Part shown: piece after piece, positions 5,254 to 5,380 of the stretch | Position numbering within the stretch: position 1 is the stretch's first letter | How the letters are laid out: each line of letters starts with the position of its first letter | Source: Escherichia phage Ivi | Sequence record: PV841871.1 | Direction: 5' to 3' (one strand) | Length of the DNA: 44,890 bases | Translations under genes and position numbers: made by a program | The notes under the pieces: model-generated | Database searches by the model: none | What the model was told of the DNA's origin: nothing | The model's input: the letters and a program-made list of their open reading frames with translations, nothing else

Positions 5254-5262
5254 TCACACCAC

Positions 5263-5288
5263 AAGCCCTCTACGGAGGGCTTTTCTGT
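5263..5288 (+). terminator. Rho-independent terminator
   Basis: AAGCCCTC-tacg-GAGGGCTT followed by TTCTGT. Confidence 0.6.
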
Positions 5289-5322
5289 ACATCCTGCCTA
5301 ATCCCCTTATATAATCCCTTTA

Positions 5323-5363
5323 GACGCGTAGGGCGCGTCTGGTGCGCTCTGATGGTCAGACGC
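5323..5363. promoter_or_regulatory. overlapping inverted repeats upstream of the small terminase gene (candidate packaging or regulatory site)
   Basis: GACGCG-taggg-CGCGTC and GCGTCTG-N15-CAGACGC, just downstream of a TATAAT at 5310-5315. Confidence 0.3.
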
Positions 5364-5380
5364 ATATGCAAGGGGATTCT

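Follow-up and report, generated by a model that had tools for sequence, protein, structure and literature searches.

The gap upstream of terS

In Escherichia phage Ivi (PV841871.1), whose 44,890 nucleotides (nt) are the window analyzed here and supply all coordinates below, the 128-nt gap in front of terS, the gene for the small terminase, is occupied by an element that looks like a gene expression switch for the packaging genes. On one side of the gap is a cluster of small open reading frames (ORFs) on the same strand, which includes a gene for a NinH-like protein (4841 to 5101) and finishes with a 51-amino-acid ORF ending at 5253. On the other side are the packaging genes: terS itself (5381 to 5926, plus strand), encoding 181 amino acids (phrog_3064 “terminase,” E = 5e-73); terL (5923 to 7173, plus strand), whose large terminase product matches Terminase_6N and Terminase_6C; and, after terL, the portal gene (7186 to 8667). 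A preliminary description, made from the letters of the sequence, had called the gap a hairpin-rich noncoding region and a candidate packaging or regulatory site. The motifs that it listed are all present where it placed them, and the region folds better than chance (z = -3.8 for 5254 to 5400 and z = -3.5 for 5322 to 5366 alone; none of 200 shuffled sequences equaled the real one in either case). The regulatory half of its proposal gained support from a terminator, promoter hexamers, and a covarying, sense-biased leader in 13 lineages, but the packaging half found no positive support, the conservation being of the kind seen in RNA.

A blastn search with 5254 to 5400 as the query placed the element upstream of terS in 416 phage records. 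For comparison, we gathered the terS-upstream regions of 50 IMG/VR contigs of the Kagunavirus and Jerseyvirus types, those of Cornellvirus and two more distant contigs, and those of eleven GenBank phages picked for their divergent TerS proteins (Pantoea phage AH01, Enterobacter phage phiEap-2, Klebsiella phages VLCpiS11a and 37P2, Hafnia phage TS33, Salmonella phage PSDA-2, Serratia phages Otaku and Tsm2, the Edwardsiella phage eiAU [Eiauvirus], and Dhillonvirus phages SP1 and JL1). Extra TerS queries against IMG/VR brought in no additional lineages. The 13 lineages compared cover Kagunavirus, Jerseyvirus, Cornellvirus, unclassified Guernseyvirinae, Eiauvirus, and Dhillonvirus, and the alignment holds 33 distinct leaders. 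One layout, spanning 71 to 79 nt, is common to all of the sampled lineages: a -10 hexamer, 6 to 10 nt, a first hairpin (hairpin 1), 1 to 3 nt, a second hairpin (hairpin 2), a Shine-Dalgarno (SD) sequence, and the ATG. In nearly all of them, a terminator hairpin stands just 5′ of the promoter. Rfam 15 gave no match at the gathering score anywhere in the window and only chance-level matches at E ≤ 10 within 5100 to 5500, and literature searches for a described terS leader motif found none.

The terminator-like hairpin lies at 5263 to 5288 (plus strand), at the end of the upstream small-ORF operon. The preliminary description had placed a terminator there, and both direct reading and an inverted-repeat search bore this out: the 8-bp stem, AAGCCCTC (5263 to 5270) with GAGGGCTT (5275 to 5282), is 100% complementary, encloses the loop TACG, and is followed by TTTCTGT. 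It has what is expected of an intrinsic terminator, a GC-rich hairpin and a U tract, albeit an interrupted one, and the stem is kept through compensatory change, with a T-A pair replaced by G-C in Jerseyvirus and a GCCCGC/GCGGGC stem in most other lineages. Homology among close relatives starts at this terminator, and the gene upstream of it varies, with at least six unrelated contexts (loci L001 to L050); we therefore regard the terminator as a mosaic module boundary, one that marks the exact point of recombination of the structural module.

Beyond the terminator stem is a putative promoter for the packaging and head operon. Its -10 hexamer is the TATAAT at 5310 to 5315 to which attention had already been drawn, and a -35-like hexamer, TGTACA (5286 to 5291, plus strand), is found 18 nt 5′ of it. 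The combination TGTACA-N18-TATAAT scores 10/12 and is the top plus-strand promoter-like site in the interval from 5200 to 25000. Five of the six -10 positions and the C that follows are invariant in the 33 distinct leaders, the third position being T or, in Jerseyvirus, C (TACAAT). The hexamer 5′ of it is TTGCC[A/T] in most lineages, at a distance of exactly 17 nt, and TGTACA in Kagunavirus and Jerseyvirus, at 18 nt; Dhillonvirus, which has no good -35 hexamer, carries an extended -10 TG instead. The spacer between the hexamers diverges freely from lineage to lineage. A sigma-70 promoter would be expected to be conserved in this way, and we predict that the element contains one. Judged from promoter geometry, transcription would start at about 5322, a purine 7 nt after the -10 hexamer.

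Two covarying hairpins in the leader

The RNA that would arise from this promoter opens with two hairpins. Hairpin 1 (5322 to 5340, plus strand), which begins at the predicted +1 position, corresponds to the first of the two inverted repeats in the preliminary description, GACGCG-N5-CGCGTC at 5323 to 5339; this repeat proved to be one pair longer than described, (A)GACGCG-N5-CGCGTC(T), and as RNA reads AGACGCG(U)-AGG-(G)CGCGUCU. In all lineages, hairpin 1 sets in 6 to 10 nt after the -10 hexamer, i.e., 0 to 3 nt from the predicted 5′ end. Hairpin 2 (5342 to 5365, plus strand) had been overlooked. It consists of an outer stem, (G)UGCG/CGCA(U), a bulged C at 5347, an inner stem, UCUGA/UCAGA, and a UGG loop, and it is the pairing that the energy model prefers and that is conserved.

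The evidence for both hairpins came from covariation. RNAalifold, run on a plain MAFFT alignment of the leaders, recovered the two of them; in that alignment, 87% of the cells are paired under the two-hairpin model, 12 of its 18 pairs have changed on both sides, and the covariation score is 0.357, compared with 0.160 for shuffled alignments (none of 500 reached the observed value) and at most 0.138 when the pairing partners were slid. After realignment with a covariance model, these figures rose to 91.9% of cells paired, 16 of 18 pairs changed on both sides, and a score of 0.492 (shuffles, 0.169, with none of 500 reaching the observed value; slid partners, at most 0.183). For hairpin 1, 90 to 95% of the cells are paired and five to seven of the eight pairs have changed on both sides, so that the GACGCG/CGCGUC stem of Ivi is represented elsewhere by GUGGCCC/GGGCCGC, AAGGCCC/GGGCUUU, GGCGGGCC/GGUCCGCC, or AGAUGGC/GCCGUCU. 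The clearest case is the inner stem of hairpin 2, in which four of the five pairs have changed on both sides and broken pairs are almost absent: it reads UCUGA/UCAGA in Kagunavirus, UAUGA/UCAUA in Jerseyvirus, UUAUGA/UCAUAA in Cornellvirus, UACCGA/UCGGUA in locus L060, GUGUGA/UCACAC in locus L061, GCCGA/UCGGC in the Serratia phages and Dhillonvirus, GCGUA/UACGC in the Klebsiella phages, and UGGA/UCCA in eiAU. Polymorphisms within Kagunavirus fall in loops, linkers, or the bulge or turn an A-U pair into G-U; the single variant that breaks a pair is in locus L025.

The structure is also strand specific. Of 29 distinct sequences, 28 fold more stably as the sense strand than as its complement, the mean advantage being 3.8 kcal/mol. 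One to four G-U pairs occur per sense fold, whereas most antisense folds have at most one and a single antisense fold has two. Counted over alignment cells, there are 61 G-U pairs against 15 A-C mismatches, the latter being in part residual misalignment. Covarying stems together with a bias toward folding of the sense strand point to an RNA element, and we consider it likely that the gap holds a promoter followed by a structured, cis-acting mRNA leader.

The second inverted repeat that had been described, GCGTCTG (5335 to 5341) with CAGACGC (5357 to 5363), fared differently. It is present on the plus strand at 5335 to 5363, but it is an alternative pairing confined to Kagunavirus and is not the conserved structure, which is hairpin 2. 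Only 69% of its cells are paired, essentially those of Kagunavirus, and its covariation score (0.129) is no better than that obtained with the partners slid by two columns (0.133). It is broken in Cornellvirus and in Jerseyvirus, where the change from CAGACGC to CATACGC keeps hairpin 2 and destroys the repeat. The repeat is a by-product of the shared words AGACGC and GCGTCT rather than the structure under selection.

Since hairpin 1 is a 7-bp perfect inverted repeat, AGACGCG-N5-CGCGTCT, which runs from +1 to +19 and overlaps the predicted start, it might instead be read as DNA, namely, as an operator at which a dimeric repressor times the promoter. We consider this highly improbable. The half-sites are wholly replaced in other lineages (GGCCC/GGGCC or AGATGGC/GCCGTCT) while the center stays constant, and such variable arms around a fixed center are the opposite of the pattern of a dimeric DNA-binding site. 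Furthermore, G-T mismatches are tolerated on one strand only, and the genome shows no significant enrichment of the half-site AGACGCG, with 15 copies where 8 are expected (5 of 100 shuffles reached this count). Near the end of the window, at 44525 to 44534, there is a 10-bp perfect palindrome, AGACGCGTCT, built from the hairpin 1 half-site.

The loops are far more conserved than the stems that carry them. Hairpin 1 has an AGG or UGG loop everywhere but in Hafnia phage TS33 (AGA), and the loop of hairpin 2 is UGG throughout, apart from CGG in L061, within a nearly invariant GAUGGUC motif. Loops of the form (A/U)GG and GAUGGUC that are close to invariant suggest a further partner. One candidate would be a protein (a phage protein, such as TerS acting on its own gene or an upstream small protein, or a host protein) or the 30S subunit, bound at the GG-containing loops and tuning terS translation. 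Such a translational operator would account for loop conservation, which neither stability nor gating of the ribosome binding site (RBS) explains, and it would suit an element that is terS specific and present in a single copy. However, no candidate binding protein is conserved in all lineages, the upstream genes differing even between close relatives; the loops lack the GGA that CsrA needs; and Rfam offers no match. We hold this possibility to be unlikely. A CsrA/RsmA leader in particular was rejected: the loops UAGGG-C and AUGGU-C have no GGA, and only the SD sequence has GGGGA.

A second candidate for the partner is the host RNA polymerase. Two adjacent hairpins that bind elongating polymerase would make it resistant to terminators across the ~12-kb head operon with no protein factor, as putL of phage HK022 does. 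The two stem-loops of the terS leader are one nt apart and start at the predicted +1 position, where a sigma-70 promoter would head a long operon; downstream, the head-gene block that the terS promoter would serve has four GC-rich terminator-like hairpins on the plus strand (8678 to 8693, 10245 to 10265, 11123 to 11142, and 13515 to 13536); and the loops are conserved across hosts that share RNA polymerase, while TerS diverges. Against this, the element has ~45 nt and short, regular stems, where put has ~70 nt, long bulged stems, and a triplex, and the covariance model finds no match in HK022 (the best E value, 1.9, is not for a full match). There is also a single copy per genome in spite of a second plus-strand structural block from near 20150, and terminators often follow portal or capsid genes in phages without antitermination. 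A put-like antiterminator is accordingly improbable in our view, and the same slight weight goes to the broader idea of a compact RNA that needs no protein factor to act on the transcription machinery of the host (e.g., as an antiterminator or antipausing element), with GAUGGUC and the (A/U)GG loops as polymerase contacts. Were such an RNA real, it would be common to many virulent enterobacterial siphophages, among the Guernseyvirinae, Eiauvirus, and Dhillonvirus.

The terS start codon

The first base of hairpin 2, position 5342, is also where many GenBank records begin terS, from an in-frame GTG or ATG (e.g., SETP3, Jersey, Shashou, and Shemara). We favor the ATG at 5381 (not 5382), 18 nt past the second inverted repeat. 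It belongs to an RBS region (5365 to 5383, plus strand) in which the SD sequence AAGGGGA (5370 to 5376) is separated by a UUCU spacer from the AUG (5381 to 5383). In PSDA-2, L061/AH01, and Otaku, stop codons break up the extension that a start at 5342 would add, and in eiAU, this extension has no start codon. Between Kagunavirus and Jerseyvirus, the 13 codons from 5342 to 5381 have undergone six changes, all of them nonsynonymous, and two of the six are a compensatory pair of hairpin 2. We also rejected both an upstream ORF and an N-terminal extension of TerS: neither the AUG within the loop of hairpin 2 nor the G/AUG at 5342 shows conservation of frame or of presence, and stops interrupt the reading frame in several lineages. 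The ATG at 5381, with its AAGGGGA, is thus the probable true start of terS. This corrects a widespread annotation error, whereby many GenBank records start the gene 13 to 15 codons early, within hairpin 2.

Predicted pairing of the promoter copy with the ribosome binding site

The sequences that flank the two hairpins are complementary to each other. Two overlapping long-range inverted repeats, both missed in the preliminary description, join 5300 to 5313 with 5365 to 5378 and 5309 to 5321 with 5370 to 5382, so that AAUCCCCUUAUAUAAUCCCUUU, the promoter as copied into RNA, can pair with AUAUGCAAGGGGAUUCUAU. The 5′ arm (5300 to 5321, plus strand), which comprises promoter spacer, -10 hexamer, and discriminator, would act as an anti-SD arm and is found only in transcripts begun upstream; the 3′ arm is the RBS region of terS. 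The minimum free energy (MFE) structure of 5254 to 5400 is a three-way junction whose closing helix hides the SD sequence and whose branches are the two hairpins. A weak reverse-strand match of the covariance model arises because the two flanks mirror each other.

Comparison between lineages gave this pairing some support. An AAUC/GAUU core is paired in 97 to 100% of the sequences, and over the ten-pair long-range helix, 79% of the cells are paired, compared with at most 53% when the partners were slid. In Jerseyvirus, a U-A pair has become C-G, TACAAT being matched by ATTGTA. Cognate arms form duplexes of -9.1 kcal/mol and noncognate arms form duplexes of -7.0 kcal/mol (permutation P of ~0.001 over 12 lineages), and for 12 of 18 sequences, 3% or fewer of the composition-matched shuffles bind as well as the real arm does. 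The predicted effect on the RBS is large in the window: by partition function, the probability that the SD sequence is unpaired rises from 0.00 in the read-through RNA to 0.78 when the RNA starts at 5322, and SD accessibility is similar in Jerseyvirus, Hafnia phage TS33, and PSDA-2. Among the 12 lineages, the pairing of the SD sequence in longer transcripts in silico is strong in 8 and weak in 4. We concluded that the long-range pairing is probable in the window's own lineage, though less secure than the two hairpins.

The same complementarity invites a reading with no promoter at all, in which TATAAT is no more than the 5′ arm of a leader folded as a three-way junction inside a long read-through mRNA and the RBS stays masked until something opens it. 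The MFE structure just described, which encloses both hairpins and pairs the SD sequence, fits that reading, as does the fact that both flanks are conserved as well as complementary. An RNA helix, however, needs neither an exact TATAAT, nor a -35-like hexamer at 17 nt, nor the extended -10 TG of Dhillonvirus; a terminator directly precedes the 5′ arm; and several lineages in which the pairing is weak still keep TATAAT. We judged this reading to be very unlikely.

Upstream transcripts could have several sources. Near-consensus promoter-like sites at 3435, 3657, and 3781 precede the co-oriented small-ORF cluster, and the terminator at 5263 to 5288 stands between them and terS; judging by their sequence, these sites could give rise to read-through transcripts. 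At the second of them, within 3657 to 3760, a near-consensus promoter, TTGACA-17-GATACT, is followed ~68 nt on by a strong terminator (CCCGGC…GCCGGG plus T9), with no ORF between them, and the predicted short RNA from this promoter begins AAAUCACCUCCUGUU, carrying the anti-SD sequence of 16S rRNA (CACCUCCU). The unit has no Rfam match. It could specify a small noncoding RNA or an attenuated leader like that of lambda PR′-6S-tR′. The third promoter-like site (3781 to 3809) comes after this unit.

The packaging-site question

The site in front of terS is where a pac site might be sought, and we therefore weighed the possibility that the region, or part of it, is double-stranded DNA recognized by TerS for headful packaging, perhaps coexisting with a promoter and leader, as at pacL of SPP1. 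The element lies directly in front of terS and is unique in the genome: the covariance model has one match, at 5310 to 5383 (89 bits), and the next locus has an E value of 8. It contains invariant blocks (GCGCAGGGCGCG-like and GATGGTC), and the subfamily packages by a headful mechanism, some of its members having been called “pac” by PhageTerm (PMC6776780, PMC10783031). On the other hand, covarying stems, fixed loops, tolerance of G-U pairs, and preference for the sense strand are signatures of RNA. The element is also kept where TerS is only 28% (Shemara) or 35% (Dhillonvirus phage SP1) identical and its N-terminal 48 residues cannot be aligned; its persistence despite the divergence of TerS makes host machinery a more likely partner than TerS. 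Nor is there a cluster of repeated boxes. The GATGGTC heptamer (the hairpin 2 loop with its closing pairs) occurs 10 times in the genome against 4.2 expected, a number that none of 100 shuffles reached, but the copies are scattered over both strands and none are clustered at terS, and the loop motif of hairpin 1 is not repeated. Because the site is unique in the genome and lies where pac sites often do, some overlap with a pac site keeps a small probability; we hold a pac site here to be unlikely, much as we do a translational operator. If virion ends were to map here, this would be a rare case of a structured leader overlain by a pac site.

Published PhageTerm results for the Guernseyvirinae (PMC9825357, PMC7005123, PMC6776780, PMC10783031) are inconsistent and give no pac coordinate. 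No termini were found for fBC-Eco01 (PMC9825357) or for Shemara, in which none could be assigned (PMC7005123); Shashou was called “pac” (PMC6776780); and Jerseyvirus K47 was called “P1-like headful,” yet its EcoRV digest fits a circular map with no submolar pac fragment (PMC10783031). We considered record starts as a proxy for mapped ends and rejected them. Several records start inside the region: those of SETP3, Jersey, and Bas73 at the 5342 start codon, that of Shashou 12 nt ahead of this codon, those of the Kenya-K phages 10 nt ahead of the real terS ATG, and that of Shemara within the promoter spacer. Most of these are at an annotated terS start codon or RBS, and they reflect conventions of deposition, given that Shemara’s own paper (PMC7005123) assigns no terminus.

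Deep, pac-like constraint within terS was likewise rejected, as the synonymous divergence between Kagunavirus and Jerseyvirus peaks at the 5′ end of the gene (0.73 for codons 1 to 15). Within Kagunavirus, codons 1 to 45 (5381 to 5515) have about half the average synonymous diversity of the gene, whereas between Kagunavirus and Jerseyvirus, they are its most diverged part. This suggests a recent recombinational spread of the leader and the 5′ end of terS within the genus, i.e., hitchhiking at a mosaic junction, rather than functional constraint. Farther into the gene, codons 46 to 65 (5516 to 5575) show a shallow trough in Kagunavirus-Jerseyvirus synonymous divergence (0.26, compared with ~0.45 elsewhere), which makes them a weak candidate for an embedded cis element, such as an internal pac site in the style of P22.

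A model for the control of terS

We propose that the 128-nt gap is a control region at the head of the packaging and head operon and that it would act mainly at the level of RNA. A moderately leaky intrinsic terminator (5263 to 5288) would close the co-oriented small-ORF operon, and a host sigma-70-type promoter, TGTACA-N18-TATAAT, would launch a terS-terL-portal mRNA at ~5322. This mRNA would open with a stable 5′-terminal hairpin (5322 to 5340), followed one nt on by the bulged hairpin (5342 to 5365), and would leave the SD sequence and the AUG single stranded. The 5′-terminal stem-loop most likely shields the mRNA from 5′-end-dependent decay, and its invariant A/UGG loop and the GAUGGUC motif of its neighbor may engage an additional partner. 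In read-through RNA, by comparison, the copy of the promoter (UAUAAUCCC...) would pair with the SD region of terS (GGGGAUUCUA) and close the three-way junction around both hairpins. Leaked transcripts would thus carry an anti-SD arm and leave terS silent, and transcripts from the embedded promoter would be without the arm and expose the SD sequence. Given that the arm is present only in read-through RNA, we propose that terS translation is confined to mRNA initiated at the promoter.

Our direct observations comprise the sequence features and the extent to which they are conserved, the covarying stems, the bias toward the sense strand, and the in silico accessibility of the SD sequence. Promoter activity, the start site, leakiness of the terminator, and effects on translation or mRNA stability are what we infer from them. 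We put the probability of the explanation as a whole (terminator, promoter, two-hairpin leader, and RBS gating) at roughly 0.55. As a selected function, the gating of the terS RBS against read-through is put forward tentatively, at somewhat less than even odds.

Several points weigh against the proposed switch. Cornellvirus L055, L060, Serratia phage Otaku, and eiAU show weak long-range pairing, and the effect on SD accessibility is weak or absent in these and in AH01 and Dhillonvirus. The long-range covariation stems from few independent compensatory events, and the complementarity could be coincidental in part because both arms are constrained for other reasons, one as a -10 hexamer and the other as an SD sequence. 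Conservation of the loops is explained neither by stabilization of the mRNA nor by RBS gating. A plain sigma-70 promoter alone does not account for late timing, and a literature search for a transcriptome of the subfamily found none for any member of the group. Finally, a simple terminator scan missed the hairpin at 5263 to 5288, which we attribute to the interruption of its T run (TTTTCTGT).

If the model holds, it offers a testable account of how the packaging genes are switched on in a large group of siphophages of Escherichia coli and Salmonella that are used therapeutically. If the conserved loops contact RNA polymerase or the ribosome, the leader would be a new, compact regulatory RNA. 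In either event, the leader is an RNA motif with strong covariation, which Rfam lacks and might include.

One further observation concerns the annotation of the head genes. A 529-amino-acid antisense ORF (11952 to 13541, minus strand) overlaps the plus-strand genes at 11692 to 12447 and 12450 to 13499, which probably encode the scaffold/protease and the major capsid protein. In the pharokka annotation of a close relative, PV656002, the antisense ORF is called in place of the plus-strand genes, probably a misannotation.

Comparison with known systems

Phage pac sites that adjoin or lie within the small terminase gene include those of P22 (gene 3), SPP1 (where pacL, pacC, and pacR overlap the gene 1 promoters), and P1. 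The element in Ivi resembles them in that it occurs once in the genome of a headful phage, where the terminase operon begins, and its overlap with a promoter has a counterpart in SPP1. It differs in that an RNA fold is conserved, in that the repeated boxes of P1 and SPP1 are missing, and in that the TerS proteins concerned have unrelated N termini.

A stem-loop at the 5′ end protects E. coli mRNAs from 5′-end-dependent decay, and stabilizing stem-loops of this kind, the ompA type, were reportedly described by Emory, Bouvet, and Belasco in 1992. The terS leader is like them in having a stable hairpin 0 to 3 nt from the predicted 5′ end in every lineage. The differences are that the start is a predicted one here and that stabilization needs neither a conserved loop nor a second hairpin.

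The layout of the HK022 put sites (PMC9378689) is similar in that two adjacent stem-loops lie just 3′ of a sigma-70 promoter that opens a long, terminator-containing phage operon. The terS leader is shorter than putL and putR (~45 nt, compared with ~70 nt), lacks their long bulged stems and triplex, and is a computational prediction. Another point of comparison is the collection of structured RNAs predicted in bulk from IMG/VR, which includes 8,495 unnamed candidates (PMC10690425). The leader, a covarying structure just 5′ of a phage packaging gene, comes from the same source collection and may be among them.

The closest parallel for the proposed switch is provided by genes e, soc, 49, and I-TevI of phage T4, in which read-through and late-promoter transcripts are discriminated at translation (reviewed in PMC3014915). 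There, as here, the SD sequence pairs with an upstream segment in the longer RNA, and a promoter in or next to the 5′ arm yields transcripts of its own that can be translated; in Ivi, the conserved -10 hexamer (5310 to 5315) is within the 5′ arm (5300 to 5321), and the predicted start (5322) comes immediately after it. In both cases, the arrangement would guard the cell against untimely synthesis of a potentially harmful late enzyme. The two differ in the promoter, which is of the sigma-70 type here (TATAAT with a -35 hexamer) and a gp55 late promoter (TATAAATA) in T4; in the pairing, which in Ivi is long range (~50 nt) and encloses two independently conserved hairpins; in the terminator directly before the 5′ arm; in the regulated gene, here that for the small terminase; and in the footing of the Ivi case, a prediction throughout. 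Taken together, the components of the terS leader (a terminator, a promoter, a structured leader, and RBS sequestration relieved by an internal promoter) are all of known kinds, and what is new is their combination, the gene that they regulate, and the conserved loops.

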